Below are positions 86 to 33,780 of a stretch of DNA of 64,000 nt, piece by piece (positions within the stretch are counted from its first letter, which is position 1; every line of letters starts with the position of its first letter). The stretch is taken from positions 13,400 through 77,399 of the forward strand of contig JBAPWQ010000049.1 of NCBI GenBank assembly GCA_049283795.1, given 5' to 3'. The notes under the pieces were generated by a model. The model was not told the DNA's origin, searched no databases, and saw only the letters and a list, made by a program, of their open reading frames with translations. Source of the stretch: Desulfobacterales bacterium (GTDB lineage Bacteria > Desulfobacterota > Desulfobacteria > Desulfobacterales > SG8-13). The position numbers and the translations under genes are program-made.

Positions 86-655
86 TTACGCTTTCACGCG
101 CGACATGAAGCGGACCGCCGCGATGTTTACCCGCACGATCTCTCCGGGAGCAAGGTATTCGGGGACCAGCACTGTCACGCCGTTGGAAAGAATCGCCGGC
201 TTGTTGCGATTGGTGGCCGTGGCCCCCCGGATGACCGGTGCGGTTTCGGCGATGGCCAGGTCGGCGGAGGCCGGCAGTTCGATGGCGATGATACTGCCGC
301 CCTGCAGCAGGGCCGTGATGCCCTCGAGCCCTTCGCTCAGCCACTGCGCCTGTTCTCCCAGAAATTCTTCACCCAGGGTGTACTGCTCATAGTTGTCCAC
401 ATCCATGAAGGTGAACAGGTCACGGTCGCGGTAGAGAAAGTTGACCGACCGGCGCTCCAGATCCACCTCCTCCAGGGTGTCGTTGCCCTTGAACGATTGT
501 TCCAGCTTCTGGCCGGACGGGATGGCGGCAAAGCGGACCTTGTAGAGCGTATTGGCCCCGCGGGCGGATGGGGTTTGAACATCGATCTGTTTGGCCTGAC
601 AGAGCTGGCCATTGATCAAAACAATGGCACCCTTTTTCAGGTTGGATGCTTTCAA
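86..655 (-). CDS. yeiP: Elongation factor P paralog (EfpL/YeiP type)
   Basis: Track ORF 86..775(-) trimmed to TTG at 655 (GGAG 7 nt upstream), giving 189 aa. The loop QTPSARGANTLYKVRF and the C-terminal NKPAILSNGVTVLVPEYLAPGE match YeiP/EfpL, not the KPGKG loop of canonical EF-P. Confidence 0.85.
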   Translation of the reverse strand: MKASNLKKGAIVLINGQLCQAKQIDVQTPSARGANTLYKVRFAAIPSGQKLEQSFKGNDTLEEVDLERRSVNFLYRDRDLFTFMDVDNYEQYTLGEEFLGEQAQWLSEGLEGITALLQGGSIIAIELPASADLAIAETAPVIRGATATNRNKPAILSNGVTVLVPEYLAPGEIVRVNIAAVRFMSRVKA

Positions 656-812
656 CAAATGACTCCTCGTGTTAGTGGTGGAACTGACAGGCGCCCCGGG
701 ATCGGCATGACGAGTATCGCTTCTGCCATCGGGAAACTTGTGACTGCACCTATCACGGACGGCGTCGTTCGTCAAAAAGAAAACAGGAGCGCGCGAATCA
801 GGGGCAATTAAT

Positions 813-2534
813 ATGACGAAAGATAACGGGATGGGACGTTATGCGCTGCAACTGGTGAAAACCGATTCCGGAACCGGCTATTTCGCCTGCTTTCCCCGGG
901 GAAATCCTGATTTTGCGGCCGGCCTGCGATATGCGCGGGCGCATCCCAACGATGAATTCATGCGAAAACACCTGCTGCAGTTGATAAACGCCTGGGACAG
1001 GCGCTCGCTGGCGCAGGCCATTTCGGCCTGTAAGGCGACCGATCTTTTTCTTCTGGCCCTGTATTTCGAAGCCTGCCTGCTCAATCCGCAATTCGATTCG
1101 CTGCGCCGTCTTTTCGCGTCCGCTGAGACGCAGCGCCTGGCCGATGTCACGCCGCTCGTTTATATCGGCGCCGCCCTGTTGGCGGACAGGGCAAGCCACG
1201 AAAAATGGATCCGGCTCTTTCGACTGAACATCACGGCGCATAAGGAACTTCCACATCCGGAAGGGGGGACCCCGGCGCCGCCGTTTCCCAACCGGCTCGC
1301 TATCGAGGCCGGAAAGGTGAGGCAGACATTGCAGGAGGCATTCGACCGGCGGCCGGCCGGCGCTGACCGGCAACACACCGCGCCTTTGGAAGCTGCCGGG
1401 ACCACGGCCCTGGCCCTCGACCGGCTGGCGAAAGCCGGCATTGTTCCGGGCCCTGAAATGCGGCACGAATCATCCCTCAGCCCGATCGCCCTGCTGCGGG
1501 GGTGGGAAATGAAGACGCGCGTGCACAATGGACGGCACCGCTTCACATTGGAAGGGCCTCAAACCGCCTACGGCCGCGGGCTCGACCTTGAATCGGCCCG
1601 TGCGGCCTGCGTCATGGAAATCGTCGAGCGATGCTCGGCCTATGCCGCCGTTGTCCCCGGCCGTATCGCAGGGTATCAAAAATCGTATCCCCTGCTGCAC
1701 GGCCGTGCCTCGGAGCTGCGGCAACAGCACATCAACCACCTCGATCCCAACCGGCTGACGCTCGAAGCGCCGTATTTGGATGATCCTTTCTACTGGATTG
1801 AAGGGCAGGAAGCCGCCGGAACCGGATCGCGATCCATCTTCGTGCCGGCGCAGTGCGTCTTTTTGTTCTGCAACCTGGATGAGCGCAAGCTCTTTTCCGC
1901 GCTGGGGTCGACCGGCCTGGCCTCGGGCAGCACCATGGCGGCCGCCAAAGTGAGCGCGCTGCTGGAGGTTATAGAGCGCGACAGCGAAAGCACCATGCCC
2001 TTTACGCCCCGGCAGTGTTTCGAGGCCGAGACCGAGGACCCGATGGTGGGCGCCCTGCTGGAGAGCTACGACCGGCTGGGCATCCGGGTGCAGTTCCAGG
2101 ACATGACCACCCCGCTCGGGGTGCCGTGCTGCAAGTGTTTCGTGGTTTCGGCGGACGGGCATATCGTGAAGGGAACCGGCGCGCACCTCGATGCGCGGCG
2201 GGCACTGCTGGCGGCCATGACGGAGACGCCGTATCCCTATCCCGGCGGTGCGCCGTCAGGTTCGGCCCTGCAGGGGCTCCTGCGCGTGCCATTGGAAAAG
2301 CTGCCGGATTACTCATGCGGTGACGCGGCCCGGGACCTGGAGTTGCTTGAAACCCTGCTGGTTTCCAACGGCTTCAGGCCGATCTATGTCGATTTGACCC
2401 GCCGGGATGTCGGTATGCCGGTCGTACGGGCGATCGTGCCCGGTATGGAGTTATTGGGGGATTTCGACCGTTTTTCACGGGTCAATCCGCGGCTCTATGC
2501 CAATTACGTCGGGATGTTCGGTTCTGCAGGCTGA
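813..2534 (+). CDS. YcaO-domain protein with a ~220-aa N-terminal domain of unknown function
   Basis: 573-aa ORF. YcaO-like motifs lie in the C-terminal two thirds (GRGLDLESARAACVMEIVERCSAY, LGSTGLASGSTMAAAKVSALLEVIERD, KGTGAHLDARRALLAAMTETPYPYP). AGGGG upstream of the ATG. Confidence 0.8.
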   Translation: MTKDNGMGRYALQLVKTDSGTGYFACFPRGNPDFAAGLRYARAHPNDEFMRKHLLQLINAWDRRSLAQAISACKATDLFLLALYFEACLLNPQFDSLRRLFASAETQRLADVTPLVYIGAALLADRASHEKWIRLFRLNITAHKELPHPEGGTPAPPFPNRLAIEAGKVRQTLQEAFDRRPAGADRQHTAPLEAAGTTALALDRLAKAGIVPGPEMRHESSLSPIALLRGWEMKTRVHNGRHRFTLEGPQTAYGRGLDLESARAACVMEIVERCSAYAAVVPGRIAGYQKSYPLLHGRASELRQQHINHLDPNRLTLEAPYLDDPFYWIEGQEAAGTGSRSIFVPAQCVFLFCNLDERKLFSALGSTGLASGSTMAAAKVSALLEVIERDSESTMPFTPRQCFEAETEDPMVGALLESYDRLGIRVQFQDMTTPLGVPCCKCFVVSADGHIVKGTGAHLDARRALLAAMTETPYPYPGGAPSGSALQGLLRVPLEKLPDYSCGDAARDLELLETLLVSNGFRPIYVDLTRRDVGMPVVRAIVPGMELLGDFDRFSRVNPRLYANYVGMFGSAG

Positions 2535-2556
2535 TCGGCCGGCGGCAAGCAGCGGG

Positions 2557-3057
2557 TTATTTGTAGAGGTTCTGGATACAGGTTTCGAAAATCCTGGCAA
2601 TGTTATACAGCGCCAACCGCAAAAACCAGTCATAGCGCGGATGGTCGGTAAATTTCGGAATGGCATATTTTTCCCGGTTTTGGGCCAGGGACCGGAATCC
2701 GAATTCACCGATGTTCCACATCAGGGTTTCATACGCCGCGGCGTCGAGATCGCGCGCCCACACGGTACGCTTGTCCGCCGCCAGGGCCTCGCGATAGTCT
2801 GCCGTAAACACGGGTTCGGCACCTCTTGCGGCTGTATTTTCCAGGGCGAACTCGCAACCATAGACCAATGCGATTCCCAATACGGCCCCGTGCATGCGCA
2901 GCTGCCAGATGGCGTCGATTTCCGTGCGCGGCAGGGGATAGGCCCCGGTTTCGAGATTGATCAGGCTTGAAATGGCCCCGAATTCACCTGCATACCGCAG
3001 CAGCAGGGTCAGGGAATGTTCATCGACCGTCTCGACCCATTTCTTCAATCTGGACAT
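2557..3057 (-). CDS. Hypothetical protein (166 aa)
   Basis: Single long ORF filling the gap between the YcaO and hisHF genes, convergent with ycaO. No family recognised. Confidence 0.5.
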   Translation of the reverse strand: MSRLKKWVETVDEHSLTLLLRYAGEFGAISSLINLETGAYPLPRTEIDAIWQLRMHGAVLGIALVYGCEFALENTAARGAEPVFTADYREALAADKRTVWARDLDAAAYETLMWNIGEFGFRSLAQNREKYAIPKFTDHPRYDWFLRLALYNIARIFETCIQNLYK

Positions 3058-3185
3058 CGATTCCCCTGCACGGTTTTAGACTTCAAGATCGCAAAAATTA
3101 TACGATGACGCGCCTGGTTTGTCAAATTTGCGGAAGGGCCAAAACGGAGAGCCGGAGGAGCGAACGGGACCACCGGCCCGCTTTT

Positions 3186-5024: not shown

Positions 5025-5429
5025 TCAAGAAGTCGGCCCCTTTGTCGACTGCAGGGCTTCGGTCAACTTTTCCAGCAGGTCTTCGAGTTCGTAGGGTTTG
5101 GTGAGGTAATCGAAAGCGCCGCAGGCGAGCCCCTCCCGGGCCGCCTGTTCGGACCCGTGCCCGGTCAGCATGAGTACCGGCAGCTCCGGGTCCATTTTGA
5201 GGAAAATTTTCAGGACCTCTATCCCGTCCATGTCCTCCATCTTGAGATCCAGGATCGCCACATCGAACTCCCGGGCCCGCAGGGACTGGATGGCTTGCGT
5301 GCCGCTGTAGGCCAGGGAGACATCGAACCCCCGCTTGGTCAATCGTTTGGATAAAACGGCGCCAAAGGCCCGTTCGTCATCGACCAGCAGCAGTCTGGGC
5401 CGGTGGCGATCCTCGTTTTCACCGGACAT
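5025..5429 (-). CDS. Stand-alone response regulator receiver (CheY-like)
   Basis: 134 aa. Motifs LLLVDDE, DVAILDLKMEDMDG and LMLTGHG. GGGGGAA RBS. Confidence 0.85.
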   Translation of the reverse strand: MSGENEDRHRPRLLLVDDERAFGAVLSKRLTKRGFDVSLAYSGTQAIQSLRAREFDVAILDLKMEDMDGIEVLKIFLKMDPELPVLMLTGHGSEQAAREGLACGAFDYLTKPYELEDLLEKLTEALQSTKGPTS

Positions 5430-5440
5430 GCGCGTTCCCC

Positions 5441-5872
5441 CTATGGACGACGGGATGTGATCTCCCTGAGCCGGGCGTCGACAATCTTGTTCTCGTGCGA
5501 GCGTTTCCTGGCGGCCGCCTCTTCGACCTTGGCCAGCAGCACATCCATTTCGCAGGGCTTCATAAGGTAATCGAGCGCCCCGAGTTTCATGCCGTCGATG
5601 GCCGTTTCGACCGTGGCATGCCCGGTCAGCATGATCACCTCCACCAGGGGGTGCCTCTTCTTGATTTCCTTAAGGGTTTCGACACCATCCATGCCGGGCA
5701 TCTTGACATCCAGAATGACCACTTCGAGTTTGGGATCCTTGGCGAGCGCCTCCAGCGCAACCTGGCCGTTCAAAGCCGTCGTCACCTCCAGTTTGCGTTT
5801 TGTCAGACGCTTGGTCATGGTCTCCACGAAAGGTGCTTCGTCGTCGACTAAGAGTACGTTGGCTATGGTCAT
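5441..5872 (-). CDS. Stand-alone response regulator receiver (CheY-like)
   Basis: Track ORF trimmed to the ATG at 5872 (AAGGAGA RBS), giving 143 aa. Motifs VLLVDDE, VVILDVKMPGMDG and IMLTGHA. Confidence 0.85.
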   Translation of the reverse strand: MTIANVLLVDDEAPFVETMTKRLTKRKLEVTTALNGQVALEALAKDPKLEVVILDVKMPGMDGVETLKEIKKRHPLVEVIMLTGHATVETAIDGMKLGALDYLMKPCEMDVLLAKVEEAAARKRSHENKIVDARLREITSRRP

Positions 5873-19408: not shown

Positions 19409-21739
19409 TCACACCAATCCGGTGAACTCGAACTCCAGCTTGGTCTGAAACTTTTCGACCCGCTTGAAGATTTCTTTCAGCATCTTCTGTTCGATGTTGG
19501 TCAGTTTTTTGGGATTGATGTAATTGTCGGGGGCGGTTTTTTCATCGACGACCGCCGTGACCTGCCGGACAAACCGCAACTGCATCAGGAAAGTGTAGGC
19601 TTTTTCAACCTCGTCGTGCTCCGGTACCGTAATGACCTTTTTCAACTGCAGGTGAACCAGGCGTTCCAGCGTGTTCGTTTCTTCGATTTTATGTTTGAGG
19701 GCATAAATACGGGCGAAATCGACGATGGGGGTCATGGCACTCTTGATATCCAGGGCGCTGCGGTGCTGGCCCTTGGATTCGACCACGAAGTTGCGAAAAA
19801 AACCGATGGGCGGTTTGAAGTGCAGGGCATTTTCAGTCAGGTGTCGAAAAAAACCGGACCAGCCCTCCAGGGATGCAAAAAGGTGTTTTCGCAGGGCCTC
19901 GATCAGTGACGCCTCTCCATAGCCGTGGCGAAAGTCGAAAAAGATGCTGGCCTGGAGCAAATCTTCCGGTTCGGCCGCATGAATCCAGGCCGAAAAATAG
20001 GCTTTCCAGGTCGAGAGCGACTGGCACCATTTGGGATTTTGAGCCATGACGCCACCGGTGCAGTATTCAAAACCGGCCTGGTCCAGCAGAAAGCAGGCCT
20101 TTTCCCCGAATTTCAAAAAATATTGCCTTACGTCCGGCTCCTCCTGTTTGTCGACGTCCTGGTACACGATGGCATTGTCCTGATCTGTTTTCAGGGTCTG
20201 CTCGTGCCGGCCTTCACTGCCCATGATCATGAAAACGAACGGAATCGGCGGCGGCCCCAACTCCTTTATGGTAAATGCCACGACCTTTTTGAGGATGGCG
20301 TCGGAGACGGCGGTAATGAACCGTGTCAGGTTCTGGGCTCGAGCGCCGCTGGTGATCAGGCTGCGGAGCAGTTGCGGCATCCGGCGGTTGCGCTCGATAA
20401 TCTGGGTTATGCTCTCCGCCTCGGTGATTTCCCGCAGCATAAACAATGGCGACTGCCCTTGAGCCGACAGGAGGTCACGGCTCGACAGAATACCCACCAC
20501 CTCATCGGCGGCGTCCATGACGGCCAGATGGCGGATGTCATCCTTCATCATCAGCATCAGGGCTTCAAAAATCAGCGCCTGGTCCGCAATCGTGCGGACC
20601 GGCGAGGACATGATGTCTTTCACCGGCTGCTGGATGTCCAGCCCCGGGGCGATTACCTTCAGGGCCAGGTCTTTTTCCGTTATGACACCCACGCACCGGC
20701 CGGAGGGTGCTTTGAGAAAGATCGAGCTGATTTTTTTCTGGTTCATCACTTGCGCGGCGTCTTGAATTGTCATGTCGACGCTGCCGAAGACCGGCTGGCG
20801 GGTGTAGATGCTGGCCACCGGTTGATTAAAAAACTGCAGGCCCTCCTGCTGGGGCTGCAGGGCCTTGGCGATGATGCTCGCATACGATTTTTCGAGCATG
20901 CGCCGGCCGAAAATGTCCGTGAAGTGCTCGGTGAAGGCTTCGAAGCGCTTGCAGATCTCCAGAAACGTTTGCTTGGGCAGCAGGTAGAAAAAGGACTTTT
21001 CGATCACCCGCATCGTGCGCACCGAAATGCCGTCGTTCAGCAGAATCGAAATGCCGCCGTAGATGTCGCCTGCGCCCAGCTGCTCGACCATCTTTTTTTT
21101 GTTTTGCTCCTCATAGTAGCGTTCCGCGGACCCCTTCTGAAGAATGTAGAGGTACCCGATGCGCGTGCGGCCCTGCACGAACAAAACGGTGTTCTTGGGA
21201 TAGTGGACCATCGTCAGTTCTGTTACGATGCTGTCGAGTTCCGTGGCCGGTAATACTGAAAAAGGCGGCAGGCGGGACAAAAAGTGCTTGGCCTGCCCGG
21301 ATTCGATGATCGAGGCCAGGGAGGTGTCGAAGATGTTTCGGCTGAAATTTTCCAGAAAATATTCGTAAAAGGCCTTGTAGCGCGTGCAGAGGTCCAGAAA
21401 ATTTTCCTCCGGGACCCTGTATCCGGTGCACTCCTCCTCGACGATGGCGGTCCGCAGGGAAATCCCGGCGTTGAGCAGGATCGTGATCCCGCCGAAAACT
21501 TCACCCTGTTTGATGAAGCCGGTCGGTTTTTGATCGTTTTTTTTCTCGTCGTAAAGCGCCAGGGCGCCTTTTCTCACGATGAAAATGCTGTCGACCTTCG
21601 TTTTTCCCTGCACGGCGTACGATGTGCCCTTGGCATGGCTTTCCTCGACGGCGGAGGCCGCAATTTTTTGGCGCTCTTCCCTGGGCAGGAAAGAAAAATG
21701 GGGCATGCCCGATATATATCGATAAATCTGCTGGTCCAT
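19409..21739 (-). CDS. Signal-transduction protein: 2x cyclic-nucleotide-binding, a CBS pair and a DUF294 putative nucleotidyltransferase
   Basis: Trimmed to the ATG at 21739 (GAGGAG RBS), giving 776 aa. Two cNMP-binding-like units, a CBS pair (ISSIFLKAPSGRCVGVITEKDL; RHLAVMDAADEVVGILSSRDLL) and MGSEGRHEQTLKTDQDNA, typical of DUF294. Confidence 0.85.
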   Translation of the reverse strand: MDQQIYRYISGMPHFSFLPREERQKIAASAVEESHAKGTSYAVQGKTKVDSIFIVRKGALALYDEKKNDQKPTGFIKQGEVFGGITILLNAGISLRTAIVEEECTGYRVPEENFLDLCTRYKAFYEYFLENFSRNIFDTSLASIIESGQAKHFLSRLPPFSVLPATELDSIVTELTMVHYPKNTVLFVQGRTRIGYLYILQKGSAERYYEEQNKKKMVEQLGAGDIYGGISILLNDGISVRTMRVIEKSFFYLLPKQTFLEICKRFEAFTEHFTDIFGRRMLEKSYASIIAKALQPQQEGLQFFNQPVASIYTRQPVFGSVDMTIQDAAQVMNQKKISSIFLKAPSGRCVGVITEKDLALKVIAPGLDIQQPVKDIMSSPVRTIADQALIFEALMLMMKDDIRHLAVMDAADEVVGILSSRDLLSAQGQSPLFMLREITEAESITQIIERNRRMPQLLRSLITSGARAQNLTRFITAVSDAILKKVVAFTIKELGPPPIPFVFMIMGSEGRHEQTLKTDQDNAIVYQDVDKQEEPDVRQYFLKFGEKACFLLDQAGFEYCTGGVMAQNPKWCQSLSTWKAYFSAWIHAAEPEDLLQASIFFDFRHGYGEASLIEALRKHLFASLEGWSGFFRHLTENALHFKPPIGFFRNFVVESKGQHRSALDIKSAMTPIVDFARIYALKHKIEETNTLERLVHLQLKKVITVPEHDEVEKAYTFLMQLRFVRQVTAVVDEKTAPDNYINPKKLTNIEQKMLKEIFKRVEKFQTKLEFEFTGLV

Positions 21740-21996
21740 CGAATCTCCTCGGGGTTGGGGGAAGGGGGAACTCATGCCGGGCCATTATAGGCAAAAATCC
21801 CCCCAACATTCAATGCGGAACCGCCGTGGTGCGCCACCGATCATCCGGGTGCCGGTGCATTAAATTCATGCAGCGGGGCGGTCACAGGTATTGCTAAAGT
21901 GTTCGAAAGTCGATATAAATGGTACGTGATGGCCGGCACGCGCCGTGTGACTTCAAAATTCAGATCGCCTGTAACCAAATGAGGAAAGTATTGATC

Positions 21997-22768: not shown

Positions 22769-23047
22769 TCAGTCGGTGACATCTTCTTCGTTTTCGTCAT
22801 ACGGGGCATAGTCATAAGAAGTAACGCTGAATATTTTCGCTCCAGTTGAATCGAGCGACACACTGCCGGTCGCCTCGATCTCTTCGTCTATCATGTTCAA
22901 CAGCTTTTTCCCCGTCCGGTTCATTTCGACAATATATTCATCCTCATCGGTCGAGATCTTGACACCGGTGTTGTCATCATCGTCGTCCAGCGGATCGACG
23001 AAACCGATGAGTGTGACCTCCGCCCTGGAATCTTTATGGTGTTTCAT
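22769..23047 (-). CDS. Small acidic hypothetical protein (92 aa)
   Basis: ATG at 23047 with an AGAGGA RBS. Asp/Glu-rich sequence. No family recognised. Confidence 0.4.
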   Translation of the reverse strand: MKHHKDSRAEVTLIGFVDPLDDDDDNTGVKISTDEDEYIVEMNRTGKKLLNMIDEEIEATGSVSLDSTGAKIFSVTSYDYAPYDENEEDVTD

Positions 23048-23559
23048 CTGCCGTAATCCTCTTGTTGATGAAGTTGATGATGGCGCCAAGCGCTGGGCGC
23101 CGGGTGCGCTGAAACACGATTTCAAAGAGCAAATCCCATGCCGTGCGCGTAACACCCGGTTATCTTCCCGGTTACATCACGCCGGCCGGCAGACGGGGGA
23201 ACTGACTGTTCCGGTCTGTGGGCCGGCCGGCCGCGGACCACGCTGCAGCTTCCGGAACCTGGCAATACAACCTGCTGAAAAAAAAGATAAAAATAAATTC
23301 AGCGCCCTGCCGTGTCCGGGGCGGAAATTTTGACGTCCGGTATCGAGCCCCGTCGCCACCCTACGCGAACACATAATTCCCCTGGAGGCCAAAAAAGGAA
23401 CCGTGAGTTCTTCACTGTCACCTTGCCGGCGGCGTGTCAACGGGTGCGCCAACGCGCAACCGGTTGAATGAGGCCGCCAAACCGTCTGAAATAAAGGGCT
23501 GGCGTCTTTGGCCGGCGCGTAGCCGGTGACGGCGATTTCTTTGTGGCATTATGAGTTTT

Positions 23560-23575
23560 TGGCACCTGTTTTGCT
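23560..23575 (+). promoter_or_regulatory. Sigma-54 (-24/-12) type promoter upstream of the KamA gene
   Basis: TGGCACctgttTTGCT matches TGGCAC-N5-TTGCW with exact GG-to-GC spacing, about 220 nt upstream of the ATG at 23798. Confidence 0.5.
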
Positions 23576-23797
23576 ATGCGATGGTCAAAAGCCGGACGGA
23601 TCGTATGGCGTTCAGGAGTCAGGTCGACTTCCCCGCGGTCCGGCGATTTTACCGTTACGGGTAAAAAACGAGAAAATGGCCCGCCGTCGATTTGCCGGGC
23701 GGTGCCGCTGGCGCCCCTTGGCCTGGGCGGTGCGGGGCGCCTGATGGTCATCACGACCAGGGTCGAGTTCGACCCCAACAGAAAAGGAGAACCGTTC

Positions 23798-25147
23798 ATG
23801 CATCCTAACCCGTCCATTTTTCAACCGACCGTTGCCAACGGCCCCCAGGACGCCTTGCAGGGGAGGGAAGACGAAGAGCCTCCGGGTAGACAGGCAGCGG
23901 CTTCCGAGCCGACTGCCAGCTGCGGTCTTCGGCGATCCTCTCGCTGCAATGACGCGGCCGTCGTCCTTAGATTCCCCCCCGAGCGTGTTGCCCGCACTTC
24001 CGTAACCACGCGCGCCTTCCGGCGCAAATTTTTCCCCGGCGTACCCGACAAATCCTGGAATGATTGGCAATGGCAGATCCGCAACCGGATCCGGCACTAC
24101 GGGCAGCTCCAGTCGATGCTGAATCTCTCGGATTTGGAAAAAGCCGCCGGCGACCACACCGGCCCCAAGCTGCCTATGGGCATAACGCCGTATTACATGA
24201 GCCTGCTCTCCGCCGATGATGCCGACCAACCTTTGCGGCGCACGGTCGTGCCGACGATTAACGAGTTCGTCAGTTCGGCGGGAGAAGCGGACGATCCGCT
24301 CGGAGAAGAGAACCAGAGCCCGGTGCCGGGCCTCGTTCACCGCTACCCCGACCGGGTCCTTCTGCTGGTGCATGATTTCTGTTCCACATACTGCCGTTAC
24401 TGCACACGGTCGCGGGTGGTGGGTCACGGCGCCATTCTGCCGAGCCGGTCGCGTCTCGAGCAGGCGATCGACTACATTCGTGCGACGCCCGCGGTGCGCG
24501 ACGTGCTGGTGTCCGGCGGCGATCCGTTGACCCTCAACGACGACCGGCTGGAGTGGATCCTGGCGCGCCTGCGGCGGATACCGCATGTGGAGGTCGTGCG
24601 GATCGGGACCAAGATCCCGGCCGTCCTGCCGCAGCGGGTCACCGGGCGCTTGGTGCGGATGCTGCGCAAGTACCATCCGCTCTGGATGAGCCTGCATTTC
24701 ACCCACCCCGACGAGTGCACGCCGGAGACCACGCGCGCCTGTGGCATGCTGGCCGATGCCGGCATACCGTTGGGCTCGCAGACGGTCCTGCTCAAAGGCG
24801 TAAATGATTCGGCGGCGACGATGACCGCGCTGTGTCACGGCCTGCTGCGGATGCGCGTGCGGCCGTACTACCTCTATCAGTGCGACCCGATAACCGGTTC
24901 GGGCCACTTCCGGACCTCGATCGCCCGGGGCCTGGAGATCATCCGGGGGATGAGGGGGTTCACCAGCGGCTACGCCGTGCCGACCTATGTCGTGGATGCG
25001 CCCGGCGGCGGCGGCAAGGTCCCGCTGATGCCCGATTACATGGCCGGCCGGGAGGGAGCCGATCTGCTGCTGCGCAACTACGAAAATCGGCTGTACCGCT
25101 ATCCCGATTGCCGGGCCGCGGATATCGACCCTGGCGCTTCAGTCTGA
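23798..25147 (+). CDS. kamA: KamA-family radical-SAM lysine 2,3-aminomutase
   Basis: Trimmed to the ATG at 23798 (AAAGGAGA RBS), giving 449 aa. Motifs CSTYCRYCTR (CxxxCxxC), YYLYQCD and VVDAPGGGGKVPL (PLP Lys). Both Asp residues tied to epsilon-amino binding in LAM appear conserved. Confidence 0.85.
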   Translation: MHPNPSIFQPTVANGPQDALQGREDEEPPGRQAAASEPTASCGLRRSSRCNDAAVVLRFPPERVARTSVTTRAFRRKFFPGVPDKSWNDWQWQIRNRIRHYGQLQSMLNLSDLEKAAGDHTGPKLPMGITPYYMSLLSADDADQPLRRTVVPTINEFVSSAGEADDPLGEENQSPVPGLVHRYPDRVLLLVHDFCSTYCRYCTRSRVVGHGAILPSRSRLEQAIDYIRATPAVRDVLVSGGDPLTLNDDRLEWILARLRRIPHVEVVRIGTKIPAVLPQRVTGRLVRMLRKYHPLWMSLHFTHPDECTPETTRACGMLADAGIPLGSQTVLLKGVNDSAATMTALCHGLLRMRVRPYYLYQCDPITGSGHFRTSIARGLEIIRGMRGFTSGYAVPTYVVDAPGGGGKVPLMPDYMAGREGADLLLRNYENRLYRYPDCRAADIDPGASV

Positions 25148-25312: not shown

Positions 25313-26326
25313 ATGAAAATCGGCCTGACATACGACCTGCGTTCGGAATACCTGGCGGCCGGATTCGGAGAAGAGGAAACCGCTGAATTCGACCGTGACG
25401 ATACCGTGATGGCTATCGAGAATGCGCTGCTGGGCCTGGGACATGCCACCGATCGCATCGGCAATGTTCGCAGCCTGTTCGGGCGCCTGACCGCCGGCGA
25501 CCGCTGGGACCTCGTTTTCAATATCGCCGAGGGGCTCAAGGGCATCGGCCGCGAGGCCCAGGTGCCCTCGGCGCTGGATGTCTACGGCATTCCCTACACC
25601 TTTTCGGATCCCCTGGTCATGGCGCTGACCCTGCACAAGGCGGTGACCAAGCGGGTGGTGCGCGATGCCGGCGTCCCCACGCCGGATTTTGCAGTGGTCC
25701 GGCCGGGCGATGGCGCCGGACCGTTGCCCTTTCCTCCGCCGTACTTCGTCAAGCCGGTGGCGGAAGGCACCGGCAAAGGGATTACGCCGCAATCGATCGT
25801 GCGGCGGCCCGAAGATCTGTCCGCTGCCAGCGACTCTTTGATCGCCGCCTTCCACCAGCCCGTCCTGGTCGAGCGCTTTCTGCCGGGCCGGGAGTTCACG
25901 GTCGGCATCGTGGGAACCGGCGCCCGGGCTCGGGTGCTCGGCACCATCGAAGTGCACCTTCTGGCGGCGGCCGAACCCGAGGTCTACTCCTATGTCAACA
26001 AGGAACGCTGCGAGGAGCTGGTCGAATACCGGCTCGGCCGCCCGGATGACGATCTGGCGGTGAAGGAGGCCGAAGACGTTGCACTGCGGGCCTGGCGGGT
26101 GCTCGAATGCCGGGATGCCGGCCGGATCGATGTGCGCTGCGATGAAAACGGCCGGCCGAATTTCATGGAGGTCAATCCCCTGGCCGGCTTGCACCCCTTC
26201 CATTCGGACTTGCCGATCATCTGCAGCCACATCGGGATGCCTTATGAGGACCTGATCCGGGACATCGTGGCTTCCGCCTCCCGGCGGATCGGCCCCGCGG
26301 CCGACCTCAAAGGAGCCGTGACCTGA
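25313..26326 (+). CDS. ATP-grasp ligase, D-alanine--D-alanine ligase family (paralog 1)
   Basis: 337 aa. Ddl-like layout: KAVTKRVVRDAGVPTPDF, YFVKPVAEGTGKGI, VLVERFLPGREFTVGIVG and GRIDVRCDENGRPNFMEVNPLAG. Confidence 0.8.
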   Translation: MKIGLTYDLRSEYLAAGFGEEETAEFDRDDTVMAIENALLGLGHATDRIGNVRSLFGRLTAGDRWDLVFNIAEGLKGIGREAQVPSALDVYGIPYTFSDPLVMALTLHKAVTKRVVRDAGVPTPDFAVVRPGDGAGPLPFPPPYFVKPVAEGTGKGITPQSIVRRPEDLSAASDSLIAAFHQPVLVERFLPGREFTVGIVGTGARARVLGTIEVHLLAAAEPEVYSYVNKERCEELVEYRLGRPDDDLAVKEAEDVALRAWRVLECRDAGRIDVRCDENGRPNFMEVNPLAGLHPFHSDLPIICSHIGMPYEDLIRDIVASASRRIGPAADLKGAVT

Positions 26327-26327
26327 T

Positions 26328-27386
26328 ATGCGTGTGGCGGTCGTGCACAACGACGTGACCCGGGACAGCGCCCCCGATGCGATAGACGTGCTGGCCCAGG
26401 CGGCAGCCGTCGAAAAAGCGCTGGCCGCGCTCGGCCACGAGGCGCTGACCTTCCCCTGCTCCCTCGATCTGGCCGGCGCCAGGGATCGGCTCAACCAGAT
26501 GCGGCCGGAAATCGTCTTCAACCTGGTGGAGTCGCTCGATGAACACGGGTGCCTGGCGCACCTGTTTCCCGCGCTGCTGGAGGCGATGGCGCTGCACTAC
26601 ACCGGCTCGCCGGCGGTGACGCTGCAGCTGACCACCCACAAGATCATGGCCAAGGAGCTGTTGCTGGCCTCCGGCCTGCGCACGCCGGCCTGGAGGGGGC
26701 CGTTTCCGGCCGAGCCGCTGTCACTGCTGCCCGCCGCAGCCGTGCGCTCCGCAAACACCCCCGGCGATCGCTGGATCGTCAAATCCGTCTGGGAGCACGC
26801 CTCTTTCGGCATGGAAGAAGATGCGTTGGTGTCCGATCTCACCGAAAAGGAGATCGAGAGGGTTTTGCGCGACCGCGCCCCGCACCTCGGCGGGTCCTGT
26901 TTCGCGGAGGGCTATGTGGACGGCCGCGAGTTCAACCTGGCGGTGCTGGCCGGTGAGACCGGGCCCCGTGTCCTGCCGCCGGCCGAGATTGTCTTTGACG
27001 GCTATGACGACCACAAACCGCGGATTGTCGGCTACCGTGCCAAATGGGAGCCGGATTCCTTCGAATACCATCACACCCCGCGACGATTTGATTTTCCGTC
27101 CGCCGACGAAGGGCTGCTGGACCGCCTCAAGGTCGATGCCCTCGCCTGCTGGCGCATCTTCGGGCTGGGCGGCTACGCGCGCGTCGATTTTCGAATAGAT
27201 CCGCACGGCACCCCCTGGATCCTCGAAGTCAATGCCAACCCGTGCCTGTCGCCCGATGCCGGTTTCGCCGCCGCACTGGCCCAAGGCGGCGTGTCGTTTC
27301 CAGATGCCGTTCAAGGAATCCTGGAAGACGCGCATAGGTGCGGCCGACGGCGATTGGCAAAGGGCAACCGCGACCGAGGAGCTTGA
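26328..27386 (+). CDS. ATP-grasp ligase, D-alanine--D-alanine ligase family (paralog 2)
   Basis: 352 aa. The ATG is 1 nt after the stop of paralog 1 (AAAGGAG RBS inside it). Motifs HKIMAKELLLASGLRTPAW, WIVKSVWEHASFGM, EGYVDGREFNLAVLAG and YARVDFRIDPHGTPWILEVNANPCLS. Confidence 0.8.
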   Translation: MRVAVVHNDVTRDSAPDAIDVLAQAAAVEKALAALGHEALTFPCSLDLAGARDRLNQMRPEIVFNLVESLDEHGCLAHLFPALLEAMALHYTGSPAVTLQLTTHKIMAKELLLASGLRTPAWRGPFPAEPLSLLPAAAVRSANTPGDRWIVKSVWEHASFGMEEDALVSDLTEKEIERVLRDRAPHLGGSCFAEGYVDGREFNLAVLAGETGPRVLPPAEIVFDGYDDHKPRIVGYRAKWEPDSFEYHHTPRRFDFPSADEGLLDRLKVDALACWRIFGLGGYARVDFRIDPHGTPWILEVNANPCLSPDAGFAAALAQGGVSFPDAVQGILEDAHRCGRRRLAKGNRDRGA

Positions 27387-27391
27387 CCACA

Positions 27392-29644
27392 ATGCTGCGC
27401 ATCCGCCGTATTTTCGATGACGTTCTGCCGGTCAACAAGGAGACCCTGGAACAGGTCAAGGCCATCCTGCGCGACCGCTTCAGCCAGGTCCCGGAAGAAG
27501 AAATCGACCAAATCGGCGCCAAGCTGCGCAACCCGTTCAAACAGCGGTTCCGCCCCATCCTGTTCGTGGCCAAGACCCTCCGCAGCCGTGTCAAGGGCTT
27601 CGCCATGCTGCTGCACGAGCCCGAAATCGGCTTCTGTTTTCTGGACTGGATCGCAACGGCCAGCGGCAGAACCGGCGGCGGATTGGGCGGCGCCCTGTAT
27701 GACCGGGTGCGCAGGGAATCGGTCGCCCTGGGTGCCGGCGGACTGTTCTTCGAGTGCCTGCCGGACGATGCCGAAGACTGTCCCGATGAAGCCCTGCTGA
27801 AGGAAAACCGGGCGCGCCTGCGATTTTACGAGCGCTACGGTGCCCGGCCGATCGTCCACACCGGCTACGAGCTGCCCGTCAATCCGGGGGACAGCTGCAT
27901 GCCCCATCTGGTCTACGATGCCCTGGATGCCGTCACCCCGCTGCGCCGCGCCTTTGTGCGCAAAGTGGTGCGGGCCATCCTGGAAAGAAAATACAGCGGG
28001 TACTGCCCAGCCGAGTACGTCGAGAAGGTGGTGGCCTCCTTTCGGGAAGACCCGGTGGCGCTGCGCGAGTTCCGGTATGTCAAACCGCAGGCCGTGAAGA
28101 CGGCGGTCGATGACCGCTCCATCGAGCAGATAGCCCTGATCGTCAATGACCGTCACCATATCCATCACGTGCACGAGCGCGGATACGTGGAGTCGCCCGT
28201 CAGGGTGCGCAGCATCCTGGCGGAACTCGACAAGAGCGGCCTGTTTGCCCGGCTCAAACCGCGGGCTTTTCCGGACAAGACCATCCACGCCGTTCACGAT
28301 GCCGATTTCGTCAGCTATCTGCGGCACGCATCCGAAGACGTGCCCGAGGGCAAATCCCTCTATCCTTACGTTTTTCCGGTGCGCAACAAGACCCGCCCCC
28401 CGAAAGAGCCCTCGGTCCTGTCGGGCTACTACTGCATCGACACCTTCACCCCCATCAACCGCAACGCCTATCCGGCGGCGCGGCGCGGGGTGGACTGCGC
28501 GCTGACCGCCGCCCGTGAAATCCTGGACGGCCGGCGCATGGCTTACGCCCTGGTGCGGCCGCCGGGCCATCACGCCGAACGCCGGGTCTTTGGCGGTTTC
28601 TGTTATTTCAACAACAACGCCATTGCGGCCCAGTACCTGTGCGCCTACGGAAAAGTCGCCATCCTCGACATCGACTATCACCACGGCAACGGCCAACAGG
28701 ACATTTTCTACCGCCGCTCCGATGTGCTGACCGTTTCGATCCACGGCAGCCCCCGGTTCGCCTACCCCTATTTCACCGGCTTCGAGGACGAACGCGGCGA
28801 CGGTGAAGGCGAGGGGTTCAACCTGAACTTTCCCCTGCCCGAGCACCTGGACGGTGAAAAATACCGCCGGGCGCTGGTCAAGGCGCTGCAGAGGATAGAA
28901 GAATACGGCCCCCAATTTCTGGTGGTGGCCCTGGGCCTGGACACCGCCAAGGGCGATCCGACCGGCTCCTGGTCGCTGATGGCCAAAGACTTCGAGGAAA
29001 ACGGGCGCCTGATCGGCGCGATGGCGGTGCCGACGGTAGTCGTTCAGGAAGGCGGCTACCGCACCCGGACCCTTGGCCAGAACGCCCGCAACTTCTTCAA
29101 GGGCCTGGCCGAGGCGCACATGAAGGCGGTCGGCCGGCGCCAGGAGCCCAAGGCCCGGCTGCACGGCATCGTCTTTCGGTATGAGCTGCAGCCGCAGGAC
29201 CCCGAAAGGATCTCGCGGTTAACCGACATCACCGGTTTTTTCACCGCCGCCGAAGTGCAGGTGGCGGTCGAGCTTGTCAACGAACGCCTGGCCAAGGGGG
29301 AGGCCAGCGGATACCACTATGTCATGGCCGAGCACTACGGGCGCCTGGCCGGCTACGCCTGCTACGGGCCGATCGCCTGCACGGTGTCGAGCTACGATGT
29401 CTACTGGATAGCGGTCCATCCGGATTATCAGGGCAAGGGGCTCGGACGCAGGATTTTAAGGGAGGTCGAACGGCTGATACGGCAGGGCGGCGGGACGCGC
29501 ATTTACGTCGAAACCTCCCAGCGAGTGCAGTACGCCAGTACGCGGGCGTTTTACGAAAGCGGCGGCTATCGCCTGGAGAGCGTGCTAACGGATTTCTATG
29601 CACCGGGTGACGGCAAGGTGGTTTACTGCAAATCTTTGATTTAG
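27392..29644 (+). CDS. Tri-domain protein: N-terminal GNAT-like, HDAC/acetylpolyamine-amidohydrolase-family deacetylase, and C-terminal GNAT acetyltransferase
   Basis: ATG at 27392 (GAGGAG RBS), 5 nt after the upstream stop, giving 750 aa. Deacetylase motifs RPPGHHA, DIDYHHGNGQQDIF, GLDTAKGDP and QEGGY. C-terminal GNAT WIAVHPDYQGKGLGRRIL. N-terminal GNAT-like WIATASGRTGGGLGGALY. Confidence 0.85.
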   Translation: MLRIRRIFDDVLPVNKETLEQVKAILRDRFSQVPEEEIDQIGAKLRNPFKQRFRPILFVAKTLRSRVKGFAMLLHEPEIGFCFLDWIATASGRTGGGLGGALYDRVRRESVALGAGGLFFECLPDDAEDCPDEALLKENRARLRFYERYGARPIVHTGYELPVNPGDSCMPHLVYDALDAVTPLRRAFVRKVVRAILERKYSGYCPAEYVEKVVASFREDPVALREFRYVKPQAVKTAVDDRSIEQIALIVNDRHHIHHVHERGYVESPVRVRSILAELDKSGLFARLKPRAFPDKTIHAVHDADFVSYLRHASEDVPEGKSLYPYVFPVRNKTRPPKEPSVLSGYYCIDTFTPINRNAYPAARRGVDCALTAAREILDGRRMAYALVRPPGHHAERRVFGGFCYFNNNAIAAQYLCAYGKVAILDIDYHHGNGQQDIFYRRSDVLTVSIHGSPRFAYPYFTGFEDERGDGEGEGFNLNFPLPEHLDGEKYRRALVKALQRIEEYGPQFLVVALGLDTAKGDPTGSWSLMAKDFEENGRLIGAMAVPTVVVQEGGYRTRTLGQNARNFFKGLAEAHMKAVGRRQEPKARLHGIVFRYELQPQDPERISRLTDITGFFTAAEVQVAVELVNERLAKGEASGYHYVMAEHYGRLAGYACYGPIACTVSSYDVYWIAVHPDYQGKGLGRRILREVERLIRQGGGTRIYVETSQRVQYASTRAFYESGGYRLESVLTDFYAPGDGKVVYCKSLI

Positions 29645-29788: not shown

Positions 29789-30091
29789 CTATTCCTTTTT
29801 GGCGGCCGAGGTGACATGCAGGACTTTTTTGCCGCCTTCCTCGGTGACGGTGCCCTTGATAGTGACCATTTTGCCCTTCATGCCGGAAAGGTCCTGCCCT
29901 TCAAGTAGATACTGCTTGCCTTCGGACATGATGACAAACCCGCCGGGGGAATTCTGAACCGTACCGAAAATTTCGACCTGTTTTGCTTCCTTGCCACTGG
30001 CCATCGACTGGTTGGCCTGGAACGCCGTGCCGGCAAACAGCAATAGCGCCATCATCACCGCCGTGCAAACCGCTACCTTGAAAAATTTCAT
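29789..30091 (-). CDS. Small secreted protein (100 aa)
   Basis: Trimmed to the ATG at 30091 (AGGAGG RBS). Signal peptide MKFFKVAVCTAVMMALLLFAGTAFQA. No family recognised. Confidence 0.5.
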   Translation of the reverse strand: MKFFKVAVCTAVMMALLLFAGTAFQANQSMASGKEAKQVEIFGTVQNSPGGFVIMSEGKQYLLEGQDLSGMKGKMVTIKGTVTEEGGKKVLHVTSAAKKE

Positions 30092-30574
30092 CGTCGCCTC
30101 CTGATCTGTTCGTTTGATTTGATTTCTCCGGAAGTCACAATGAACTCGATTGGGTCGGTTTTCTCCGGACGGCAAGCGCAAAAAACACTCCTTCCCAACA
30201 AACCTCACGGCCTTCTTCCGAAGTTCCTATGTGAGTCATAAGCTTAGCAAGACCGGTGCCAACAGGATAACCACCTGAGATGAAATGATATACTGATTTC
30301 GTTGACCTGCTCGCCGAACGCTCCATTCTAATATTTGAGCCCTGAATCTGCGGGCGATCGGGCCTGCGCCCCGCTAACAGACTGACCTGGCAGGATAAAA
30401 TCAACAGGGCCGTGACCAGAACTCCCGGGACTCAATTAGGGGGTATCGGAATTCGAAATTCCTTTTTCTCCGCCGGGTGCCAGCCGCGGGCACCGGCAAC
30501 AGGGTGTCATCGGTCGTGACCGAAGCCGTCAGGGCCTCAACGTTACACCGCACATCGACCCGCGCTCGCTCTTC

Positions 30575-31722: not shown

Positions 31723-31836
31723 GTGTGCCCGCAGCAGGGCCCTCATACTTGGCGGCCTACCCGCACAATGGATGGGATAAAAGGGCCCGGCCGGGACGAC
31801 CATCAGTTTAAATGACCCGTGAAAGGAAAAAGAGCG

Positions 31837-33780
31837 ATGATACTCGAACTGACGCCCCACATCACCACCGCTGAAAAAACCGCGCTGGCAGCGATTCTAC
31901 AGGAACGGCACTGCGATGTGCGAGAGTTGCCGGACACCGATGTCCAGCGCATCGGTGTCATGAACCCGAAACGACACCCCGCGGAGTTTTTCAGGAACCT
32001 GCCCGGGGTGGCCCGAACGGTTGCCGTCGGCACGCCCTACAAACTCGTCGGCCGTCAGATGCACCCGCAGGATACGCTGGTTCGCGTTGGTGACGCGCTG
32101 GTCGGTGGCGACCGCCTGACGGTCATTGCCGGCCCGTGCGCCGTCGAAAGCCGCGCGCAGGCGCTCACGATCGCCCGCTGGGTCAAGAAGGCCGGTGCGG
32201 TCTTGTTCCGCGGCGGGGCTTTCAAACCGCGGACCTCGCCCTATTCATTTCAGGGGTTGGAAGAAGAGGGCTTGAAGATCCTGGCCGAAGTCCGTGACAC
32301 CTGCGGTCTGGGCGTCGTCACCGAGATGACCGCTCCGTCCCAGGCCGAAATCATGCTGAAATACGTGGACGTGGTTCAGGTCGGCGCCCGCAACATGCAG
32401 AACTTCGAGCTGCTCAAGGCGGTCGGCCGCATGGGCCTGCCGGTTCTCCTGAAGCGCGGCCTGTCCGGCACGATCGAAGAATGGCTCATGTCGGCGGAGT
32501 ACATCCTCTCCGAGGGCAATCCGCACGTCATGCTGTGCGAGCGCGGCATCCGCACCTTCGAGCCCTACACGCGCAACACCCTCGATTTGACCGCCATCCC
32601 GGTCCTGAGAAACATAACCCACCTGCCAATCATCATCGATCCGAGTCACGCCACCGGCAGCCGCGAAAAAGTCAGCCCCATGGCGCGGGCCGCCATTGCC
32701 GCCGGTGCCGACGGTCTGATGATCGAGGTTCATCACGACCCCGACCAGGCGCTTTCGGATGGCCCGCAGAGTTTGTATCCCCTGCAGTTCGGCCAACTGA
32801 TGCGAGACCTTTACGTCATCGCCCCGGTGGTCGGCAAGCAGCTCGACTTCGGCTATATTGAAAAGGCCCGGGCCGTCGAGACGCGCAGCCGCCATGCCAA
32901 CGGCGGCCGGCAGCGGGCGGCTTTCATGGGGCGTGTCGGCACCTTCAGCCACAAGGCCTGCCGGCAGTATTTCGGCGGGGAAGTCGCGGCCGTGCCAGTG
33001 CCTTCCTTCAGAGGCGTCTTCGAGGCCGTCAAAACCGATGCGGCCGATTTCGGCGTCATACCGCTGGAGAATTCACTCAGCGGCAGTATTCATGAAAACT
33101 ACGATTTTTTAAGGGAGTACGATGTGAAAATCATCGGAGAGATCGAGCTGCGCATCATGCATCATCTGATGGCGGCGCCCGGCGCGTCCATCGGCGGCAT
33201 CCGGCGCGTCCTGTCGCATCCGCAGGTGTTCGGCCAATGCCGCCAGTTTCTCGAACAGCACGACTGGGAACTGGTAGCGGTCGGCGATACCGCGGCGGCG
33301 GCCCAGCGGGTGGCCGACAGCGACGCGACCGGCGATGCCGCCATCGCTGGCCTGGTGGCCGCCCAGGAATACCATCTAGAAGTACTGGCGGAAAATATCG
33401 AAGCCAATCCGCGCAATTACACCCGTTTTGTCATTATCGGCAAGAGCCCTCTTCACAAGGGCTTCGCCGACAAGACCTCGCTCATCTGTTCGACCAGCAA
33501 CGAGCCCGGCGCCCTCTACGAGACGTTGAAGATTTTTGCCGAAAACCGCATCAACCTGATCAAGCTCGAGTCTCGACCGCTGCCGGGAGAACCCTGGCGC
33601 TGCATGTTTTACATGGACATCGAGGCCGACCTCGGCGCCGATGCTTTGAAACCCGTGCGCGAGCAGCTGGAGCAAAAGACCGACTTCCTGAAAATTCTCG
33701 GCACCTATGGCGAGGTGCCCGAAACCCTGCCGGGTGAAGGGTTAAGAGCACCTCGCGCGGCGGTTGCGTCGGCTGGGTGA
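31837..33780 (+). CDS. Fusion protein: type I-beta DAHP synthase (with an N-terminal ferredoxin-like regulatory domain), prephenate dehydratase and an ACT domain
   Basis: ATG at 31837 (AAAGGAAAAAGAG upstream), giving 647 aa. DAHPS motifs [30 protein letters not shown] and IIDPSHA. PDT/ACT motifs [27 protein letters not shown] and LIKLESRPL. Confidence 0.85.

Follow-up and report, generated by a model that had tools for sequence, protein, structure and literature searches.

GNAT writers and HDAC-family erasers of acetyl groups are normally separate proteins. What, then, might be the task of a single polypeptide that joins two predicted writers to one predicted eraser, all three apparently active? 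Such a protein is encoded on a contig of a Desulfobacterales bacterium (JBAPWQ010000049.1), of which a stretch of 64,000 nucleotides, hereafter the window, was analyzed. The open reading frame (ORF) at 27392-29644 on the forward strand yields a 750-aa protein composed of a divergent GNAT domain (aa 1-232), an HDAC-family deacetylase domain resembling the acetylpolyamine amidohydrolases (APAHs; aa 246-575) and a canonical GNAT domain (aa 593-750). A sequence-only reading of this DNA had put forward precisely this arrangement, two GNATs flanking an HDAC-family deacetylase in one chain, and the evidence from Pfam, sequence profiles and structural modeling (AlphaFold and Foldseek) bears it out. 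The gene closes a conserved operon, together with a lysine 2,3-aminomutase-like gene and genes for two ligases resembling D-Ala-D-Ala ligase (Ddl), and in sister clusters the deacetylase can be replaced by a non-homologous hydrolase of the M20 family. With slightly less than even confidence, we propose that the fusion acts on a small molecule derived from beta-lysine, not on proteins, and that it edits, or protects and deprotects, the acetyl pattern of that molecule.

Two GNAT domains and a deacetylase on one chain

As called mechanically, the ORF begins at GTG 27338 and ends at 29644 on the forward strand. The N-terminal motif M[LF]RIRRI.DD is kept across homologues of the fusion protein, and a Shine-Dalgarno sequence, GAGGAG, lies 10 nt 5' of ATG 27392, with the stop codon of the preceding gene 5 nt 5' of the same ATG. 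We thus take ATG 27392 to be the real start and reject GTG 27338. Searched as a whole, the protein matches Pfam Hist_deacetyl at aa 266-571 and several GNAT models at aa 638-727 (E values in table 1), with nothing significant in its first 250 residues. The median identity of relatives to the window protein amounts to 70% in the N-terminal GNAT, 79% in the HDAC domain and 66% in the C-terminal GNAT, and given this similar conservation none of the three domains looks degenerate. All motifs quoted earlier are found, namely RTGGGLGGALY (aa 93-103), PPGHHA (aa 390-395), DIDYHHGNG (aa 426-434), GLDTAKGDP (aa 515-523), EGGY (aa 553-556) and QGKGLGRRI (aa 680-688). Unless another alignment is named, statements on residue invariance refer to an alignment of 108 homologues.

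The N-terminal ~200 aa had been described as GNAT-like, and the various approaches agree with this view. The window copy is subthreshold in Pfam (16.9 bits against a cut-off of 20.7, and 17.7 against 27; E 0.005-0.008), and Acetyltransf_1 (PF00583) is matched by 17 of the 17 members of the N-domain family, with a best E of 2.7e-13. The family profile retrieves solved GNATs from the PDB (best E 5e-7): the best matches are streptothricin/nourseothricin acetyltransferases (E 5e-7 to 5e-5), followed by phosphinothricin acetyltransferase, RimI and GCN5. By hhalign the domain also aligns with the C-terminal GNAT of its own protein (E 1.9e-5), from beta3 to alpha4, with an 11-residue insertion before alpha4. 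The AlphaFold2 model of aa 1-240 (pLDDT 90.7, pTM 0.89) displays GNAT topology plus two extra helices, with the element order beta1-alpha1-alpha2-beta2-beta3-beta4-alpha3-beta5-alpha4-beta6 of the GNAT fold. When this model was compared with the PDB by Foldseek, the top 50 entries were all GNATs, at target TM-scores of 0.60-0.76 save for one multi-domain entry at 0.37. The possibility that the region is a linker, or otherwise not a GNAT, is rejected on the combined weight of the Pfam family matches, profiles, hhalign and AlphaFold/Foldseek. Since the domain falls under the Pfam thresholds, current annotation understates the architecture.

Nine positions are invariant in the 17-sequence alignment of the N-domain family (G97, G99, L102, Y103, D125, R142, F145, Y146 and G150), and G97, G99, D125 and R142 are invariant among the 108 homologues too, along with E121 in beta5 and Y146 in alpha4. 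A variant acetyl-CoA pyrophosphate loop, R93-T-G-G-G97-L-G99-G-A-L-Y103, is predicted to sit exactly between beta4 and alpha3, where GNATs have the loop signature Q/R-x-x-G-x-G/A. E121 and Y146 fall at what we take to be the positions of the catalytic Glu and Tyr of RimI, and their invariance makes the N-terminal GNAT look catalytically competent. An exhaustive search of aa 1-260 against 1.84 billion representative proteins returned only 510 clusters, whose main classes are proteins of ~575-590 aa (N-domain plus HDAC domain), ~750 aa (with the C-terminal GNAT in addition) and ~240-270 aa (stand-alone).

At the other end of the chain, where QGKGLGRRI had been taken for a canonical GNAT motif, both Pfam (PF00583, 61.6 bits against a cut-off of 20.7; PF13508, 62.1 bits against 27) and a solved structure confirm the assignment. 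This structure, PDB 2R7H (Dde_3044), is a Desulfovibrio GNAT closely similar in sequence and fold (E 2e-41, 46% identity, TM-score 0.98, root-mean-square deviation 0.7 A), and G683, G685 and Y721 of the C-terminal GNAT are invariant. It was deposited as a "putative D-alanine N-acetyltransferase", a name that is only a prediction. Furthermore, 2R7H stands alone, whereas here the domain is fused behind a deacetylase.

The central domain resembles the solved APAHs in sequence, fold and catalytic residues. It aligns end to end with those of Marinobacter (6PHR, E 4e-76), Pseudomonas (PsApaH, 9GKZ, E 7e-75) and M. ramosa (3Q9B, E 1.5e-64), without large gaps through the region of the L2 loop, a determinant of polyamine specificity. 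APAHs make up its five best PDB sequence matches and its sixteen best structural matches, and Foldseek places the full-length AlphaFold model at TM-scores of 0.87-0.91 to them. The zinc ligands D428/H430/D517 align to D195/H197/D284 of the M. ramosa enzyme, the tandem His H393/H394 to H158/H159, the charge-relay Asn N433 to N200 and the catalytic Tyr Y556 to Y323; all of these are invariant, as is D426 of the catalytic set. With every zinc and catalytic residue invariant, the catalytic apparatus of the deacetylase is predicted to be intact, and the earlier impression that the catalytic elements are kept holds on proper alignment, metal ligands included. The domain belongs with the APAH group, that is, cluster 4 of a 2024 survey of bacterial deacylases, the only cluster in which bacterial polyamine deacetylases are reported to occur (PMC11532494). 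The family also has an invariant motif of its own, GYxCIDTFTP (aa 345-354, G345 to P354).

The architecture is widely distributed. The 120 best database matches are all 748-770 aa long with the same Pfam content, at 71-98% identity, and a search seeded with a 50%-identical representative added a further 120 three-domain proteins, those with a named taxon being mostly from Alphaproteobacteria. In total, the fusion is carried by at least 240 clusters of proteins, which stem from Desulfobacterota and Alphaproteobacteria, and a genome scan recovered it in 171 species-level genomes. Three complete genomes, those of Desulfococcus multivorans, Desulfosarcina widdelii and Desulfosarcina variabilis, encode homologues of identical length. 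An assembly artefact, a concern raised together with the original description, is therefore rejected, since complete genomes, and hundreds of independent contigs besides, show the same 750-aa architecture. The closest relatives belong to metagenome-assembled genomes (MAGs) of Danish soil and sediment. In public records the fusion goes by names such as "GNAT family N-acetyltransferase", "histone deacetylase domain protein" and "AcuC-like deacetylase/GNAT"; annotation pipelines recognize the joining of the HDAC domain with the C-terminal GNAT but miss both the N-terminal GNAT and the logic of the operon. One homologue (P0351, at 343-3081 of locus L085, a short contig) appears as a 912-aa protein with a SET domain in addition to the three domains.

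The operon and its split variants

Upstream of the fusion gene, which comes last, lie kamA and the ATP-grasp ligase genes AG1 and AG2, in this order and with gaps of 165, 1 and 5 bp. KamA is similar to the lysine 2,3-aminomutase (LAM) of C. subterminale (2A5H, E 4e-136) and keeps the CxxxCxxC motif, Asp293 and Asp330, which bind the epsilon-amine of lysine, and the pyridoxal phosphate lysine 337. Its best NCBIfam model is AblA (TIGR03820), at 481 bits against a cut-off of 525. The alignment with clostridial LAM stops at residue 366 of 416, the C-terminal part of that enzyme having no counterpart in KamA, and the ~75 N-terminal residues that precede the LAM-homologous core are of low complexity and poorly conserved between loci. 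A glutamate or arginine 2,3-aminomutase is disfavoured, given that the respective models score lower and the epsilon-amine Asp pair is kept.

AG1 is a distant member of the Ddl family (NCBIfam Ddl, 143 bits against a cut-off of 243; PDB Ddl matches at E ~1e-21), in whose translation the catalytic motifs R-I-D and E-V-N can be read and whose median identity to relatives is 69%. The more divergent paralogue AG2 matches Ddl structures in the PDB at E ~4e-13 and has R-V-D and E-V-N motifs. Both score far under the Ddl cut-offs, and true D-Ala-D-Ala ligases are thus rejected. A 540-aa representative protein (P0168) consists of an AG2-like ATP-grasp domain fused to the N-terminal GNAT; it could be one more natural fusion, or else the 5-bp gap has been read through.

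The linkage of these genes is conserved. Among 80 loci of the genome scan, the whole kamA-AG1-AG2-fusion block is present in 59 and as much of it as the contig end permits in 7, while 6 are not assessable, which places the fusion in the operon in 66 of 74 assessable loci. The gene order is the same in Alphaproteobacteria (L083, L084) and permuted in a MAG of the gammaproteobacterial Ectothiorhodospiraceae (L081). In 17 loci a CxxCxxCC (PF03692) metal-binding protein of ~170 aa is inserted between kamA and AG1 (e.g., L011, 5363-5872 on the forward strand); it is absent from the window and might supply the radical SAM enzyme with electrons. A single MAG (MFD09779.bin.1.24) has the whole cluster on each of two contigs (L008 and L010), at 79% identity to the window; one copy contains split or frameshifted genes, which could represent a duplication or a binning or assembly problem.

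The fusion can also be found in pieces. In a locus from Thermodesulfobacteriota (L077), AG2 is directly followed by a gene for the C-terminal GNAT alone, and 2.6 kb downstream there is a gene for a two-domain N-GNAT-HDAC protein. With this stand-alone GNAT as query, six further contexts (L086-L091) were examined, and in all 7 sampled split clusters kamA-AG1-AG2-GNAT is followed by a hydrolase. The latter is an N-GNAT-HDAC protein of 585-591 aa in L087 and L090, a 474-aa dipeptidase-like M20 enzyme in L086 and L089 and a 384-aa M20 enzyme in L091, while L088 has a separate ordinary GNAT together with an M20 deacylase of the ArgE/DapE type. The separate C-terminal GNAT of L077, L087 and L090 represents natural fusion and fission within the same operon. 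MFS transporters accompany L086-L089 and L091, which suggests that a small molecule is transported, and NtrC-type sigma-54 activators accompany L086-L088 and L091. Small zinc-finger proteins of the zf_Tbcl family (PF13451) are encoded near the split kamA clusters of L086, L089, L091 and L077 (in the last at about 5380-5510).

Since a hydrolase is present in every sampled split cluster, we take an amide hydrolase to be an obligatory partner of the aminomutase-ligase-GNAT module. M20 dipeptidases and ArgE-like deacylases act on small N-acyl amino compounds. A small-molecule deacylase of this kind, not homologous to the HDAC unit, can stand in for it, and this exchange constitutes our main argument for a metabolite, not a protein, as the substrate of the fusion.

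Candidate substrate and competing explanations

In the scheme that we envisage, KamA would convert L-lysine into beta-lysine, the C-terminal GNAT would acetylate one of two amino groups, be it on beta-lysine itself or on a beta-lysyl intermediate, and the amine or carboxylate left over would be where the two Ddl-like ligases form two amide bonds. The APAH-like domain would take off an N-acetyl group from the terminus of an aminoalkyl chain, and the N-terminal GNAT, which travels with the HDAC domain in this family, would acetylate a second amine or re-acetylate. The whole protein would in this way set which nitrogen of the product bears the acetyl group, by protection and deprotection or by pattern editing. 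N-epsilon-acetyl-beta-lysine could be a suitable substrate: its beta-amine lies four carbons from the acetylated nitrogen, which is the N8-to-N4 spacing of N8-acetylspermidine, and it might therefore fit an APAH tunnel. We infer the substrate, the order of the steps, the nitrogen used by each domain and the nature and role of the final product, which might be a solute, a polyamine-like cation, a nitrogen store or an exported compound. The idea of the sequence-only reading that the chain runs an acetyl protect/deprotect cycle or serves two substrates, possibly with acetyl-beta-lysine involved, gains strength from kamA and the two ligases in the operon and from the M20 replacement elsewhere.

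Similar logic can be found in known pathways. In ArgA/ArgE of arginine biosynthesis, in the acetylase branch of the diaminopimelate pathway to lysine and in kamA-yodP-yodQ of B. subtilis, other steps on a diamino acid lie between the actions of an N-acetyltransferase and a deacylase, and by analogy the hydrolase swap would fit acetyl protection and deprotection as well. Like these pairs, the sister clusters use M20 enzymes of the ArgE/DapE family instead of the HDAC domain; in contrast to the fusion, the pairs are separate polypeptides, their hydrolase is an M20 enzyme and not an HDAC, and no ATP-grasp ligases are involved. Ngg, from the pathway to N-acetylglutaminylglutamine amide (NAGGN), is a GNAT fused to an ATP-grasp dipeptide ligase and makes an N-acetylated peptide solute, and glutathionylspermidine synthetase/amidase unites opposing make and break activities on one chain. 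Both are functional analogies only, as their domain families and order differ from those of the fusion. The APAHs themselves lack the two flanking GNATs and the GYxCIDTFTP motif, and the genomic partner of the domain here is a beta-lysine module, not polyamine catabolism.

A number of observations weigh against the proposed role. The polyamine contacts of the M. ramosa enzyme are not kept, with E106 replaced by S341, E117 by F352 and Y168 by F403, of which S341 is variable and F352 and F403 are invariant. In M. ramosa, E106 acts in trans on the polyamine (PMC11532494). With these residues replaced, the substrate is probably no standard acetylpolyamine, the homology cannot by itself give the substrate, and we call the domain APAH-type or APAH-like instead of an acetylpolyamine amidohydrolase. 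PsApaH, an enzyme of the APAH group, deacetylates a lysine peptide too (PMC11532494), which keeps protein substrates in play. Eight loci have the fusion or the two-domain N-GNAT-HDAC protein without a kamA cluster within 8 kb. Clusters of the M20 type are mostly without a second GNAT, and for this reason the scheme is at its weakest in the role that it gives to the N-terminal GNAT; the domain may be regulatory. Finally, structure prediction had been suggested as a means to see how the active sites are arranged: the folds of the domains are recovered, but the full-length AlphaFold model (pLDDT 82, pTM 0.52) does not give a reliable inter-domain arrangement and lends no support to a channelling geometry. 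As the model of a monomer, it is no guide either to quaternary structure, such as the head-to-head dimer that APAHs form through their L1 and L2 loops.

The nearest precedent for a lysine 2,3-aminomutase encoded together with a GNAT is the AblA/AblB osmolyte pathway of methanogens, and in an alternative scenario the operon would serve compatible-solute homeostasis. KamA and the C-terminal GNAT would make N-epsilon-acetyl-beta-lysine, or an N-acetylated beta-lysyl peptide akin to the dipeptide osmolyte NAGGN, and the APAH-like domain would degrade it on osmotic down-shift, as a make/break valve. The best NCBIfam model of KamA is indeed AblA, its lysine-binding Asp residues are kept, a GNAT adjoins the aminomutase module in all variants and many host lineages are marine or halophilic. 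Two further hints, which fall short of evidence, are TrkH/TrkA potassium-uptake genes 5-7 kb from the fusion in L058 and L082 and, in L079, a glycosyltransferase/HAD phosphatase pair beside the fusion with a weak match of the mannosylglycerate-synthase type. Nevertheless, osmotic genes are neighbours at these three loci only, the closest relatives come from soil and sediment rather than from obligate halophiles, and nearly every linked cluster has two ATP-grasp ligases, of which the synthesis of N-epsilon-acetyl-beta-lysine needs none. The AblA score is under its cut-off, neither GNAT matches the AblB family (no such model among the NCBIfam matches of the fusion at E up to 0.1), and the two ligases and the deacetylase are additions to the methanogen scheme. 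We consider this scenario unlikely. A beta-lysine pseudopeptide that is N-acetylated in the producer for self-protection, comparable to phosphinothricin and streptothricin systems, and unmasked by the HDAC or M20 enzyme at or before MFS export would be in line with the best PDB matches of the N-terminal GNAT profile (7YPU, 5C82, 3PP9 and 5DWM, i.e., streptothricin/nourseothricin and phosphinothricin acetyltransferases; E 5e-7 to 1e-4), with the conserved MFS transporters of the split clusters and with the terminal hydrolase in each of them. We nonetheless find such a pro-drug improbable: the operon of the window has no transporter, RimI- and GCN5-like GNATs come out ahead of resistance enzymes in the structural search, and identities of 70-80% across families of Desulfobacterota, with no other tailoring genes, are unlike the patchy occurrence typical of secondary-metabolite clusters.

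Regulation of proteins has a precedent as well. AcuA and AcuC of Bacillus, a GNAT writer and a zinc-HDAC eraser that are encoded together, control acetyl-CoA synthetase, and the fusion might likewise be a writer/eraser switch that reversibly acetylates lysines of KamA, of the ligases or of another target, the linkage then reflecting regulation. Both GNATs resemble protein acetyltransferases of the RimI/GCN5 type in the NCBIfam and Foldseek rankings, and at some loci the fusion gene is found alone. SET domains are typically protein-lysine methyltransferases, and the homologue P0351 bears one. The activity of the cluster-4 enzyme PsApaH on a lysine peptide points in the same direction (PMC11532494). 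On the other hand, AcuA and AcuC are separate proteins with a protein lysine target, and AcuC falls in cluster 2c; the present HDAC domain groups with the small-molecule APAHs and not with AcuC-type class I enzymes, its neighbours are biosynthetic (KamA and ATP-grasp ligases), its APAH substrate loop is the most invariant segment, and M20 dipeptidase or ArgE-like deacylases take its place in sister clusters. A protein switch is quite unlikely. Decidedly improbable, in our view, is that the N-terminal GNAT is a non-catalytic module that senses acetyl-CoA or CoA, or presents the substrate, and gates the deacetylase, leaving acetyl transfer to the C-terminal GNAT. This would account for the almost constant fusion of the N-domain to the HDAC domain in this family, for its absence from the M20-hydrolase clusters and for the atypical CoA loop (G-G-G-L-G-G) that scores under the Pfam thresholds. 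However, neither E121 and Y146, which occupy the RimI-type catalytic positions, nor G97 and G99 vary among the homologues, and the pairing of a separate GNAT with an M20 deacylase in L088 suggests a real second acetylation step.

The action on a small molecule derived from beta-lysine, which we favour, can be drawn more specifically. The fusion might carry out regio-editing of an undescribed beta-lysine metabolite, a small peptide or polyamine-like compound widespread in anaerobic Desulfobacterota and Alphaproteobacteria: an acetyl group would be taken off one nitrogen, of the epsilon type, in the APAH tunnel, and another put onto a second nitrogen, so that writer and eraser hit different nitrogens of one molecule, possibly with a hand-over between active sites. 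In this detailed form the proposal is doubtful.

Full-text literature searches returned no description of a GNAT-HDAC-GNAT fusion or of the operon; a paper on the negamycin cluster and one on ablA/ablB in syntrophs proved unrelated. The 2024 survey of bacterial deacylases likewise makes no mention of GNAT fusions (PMC11532494). Each part belongs to a known enzyme family; what is new is their combination, together with the pathway that it implies. The fusion is a natural system for asking how opposing activities avoid futile cycling, and its APAH-like domain, with a new invariant substrate loop, would widen the known range of substrates of the HDAC family in bacteria. The gene also draws attention to a conserved operon in which a lysine 2,3-aminomutase and a pair of Ddl-like ligases are joined by a GNAT and by a hydrolase that can be of either the HDAC or the M20 type, often with a sigma-54-type promoter upstream and sometimes with a link to MFS transport, which implies a new beta-lysine-derived metabolite in sulfate reducers and other anaerobes.

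Predicted promoters and flanking genes

The features of the locus are collected in table 1.

Table 1. Domains of the fusion protein, operon genes and flanking features, in window coordinates.
Feature	Position	Strand	Remark
N-terminal divergent GNAT domain, aa 1-232	27392..28087	+	GNAT core to ~aa 180, then two-helix extension
APAH-type HDAC-family zinc deacetylase domain, aa 246-575	28127..29116	+	Pfam Hist_deacetyl, E 9e-78
C-terminal canonical GNAT domain, aa 593-750	29168..29644, stop codon included	+	Pfam Acetyltransf_1 and Acetyltransf_7, E ~1e-16
Lysine 2,3-aminomutase-like radical SAM/pyridoxal phosphate enzyme (KamA family)	23798..25147	+	likely ATG 23798, 449 aa
ATP-grasp ligase AG1, distant Ddl family member	25313..26326	+	Pfam Dala_Dala_lig_C, E 4e-24
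ATP-grasp ligase AG2, more divergent Ddl-like paralogue	26328..27386	+	Pfam Dala_Dala_lig_C, E 1.5e-13
Predicted sigma-54-type -24/-12 promoter TGGCACCTGTTTTGCT	23560..23575	+	perfect consensus match, directly 5' of kamA
Small, very acidic protein gene, divergent from kamA	22769..23155, likely start 23047	-	possible accessory gene
DUF5818-like small protein gene	29789..30208, likely start 30091	-	weak DUF5818 match, signal-peptide-like N-terminus

A sigma-54 promoter is predicted for the operon from a perfect match to the consensus TGGCAC-N5-TTGCW, two of which occur in the 64-kb window against 0.08 expected, and from the recurrence of such a motif 5' of kamA in about 19 related loci. The second perfect site, at 30246-30261 on the reverse strand, lies past the end of the operon, 5' of the DUF5818-like gene. 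The mechanical KamA ORF begins at 23576, ~74 codons further 5', and overlaps the promoter; for this reason the true start is probably ATG 23798, which has AAGGAG 8 nt upstream. No sigma-54 activator gene was found in the window, while such genes adjoin the cluster at other loci. A search of the whole window against Rfam gave no family at gathering score, be it a riboswitch or another known RNA, and PADLOC gave no anti-phage defence match for the six proteins submitted.

Two small genes are tentatively assigned to the system. Homologues of the small acidic protein adjoin the cluster in 16 sources. Among these are the distant L086-L088, where the gene lies directly 5' of kamA on the same strand; in the window it is preceded by a weaker sigma-54-like site at 23128-23143 on the reverse strand. 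DUF5818-like genes occur beside the split cluster of L091 as well.

Further from the operon, the gene at 19409-21775 on the reverse strand encodes a 788-aa protein with two cyclic-nucleotide-binding domains, CBS domains and a DUF294 nucleotidyltransferase, and is syntenic with the operon in the closest relatives only. On the other side, a 653-aa ORF at 31819-33780 on the forward strand combines DAHP synthase, prephenate dehydratase and ACT in one chain, an unusual joining of the first shikimate step with the terminal phenylalanine step.

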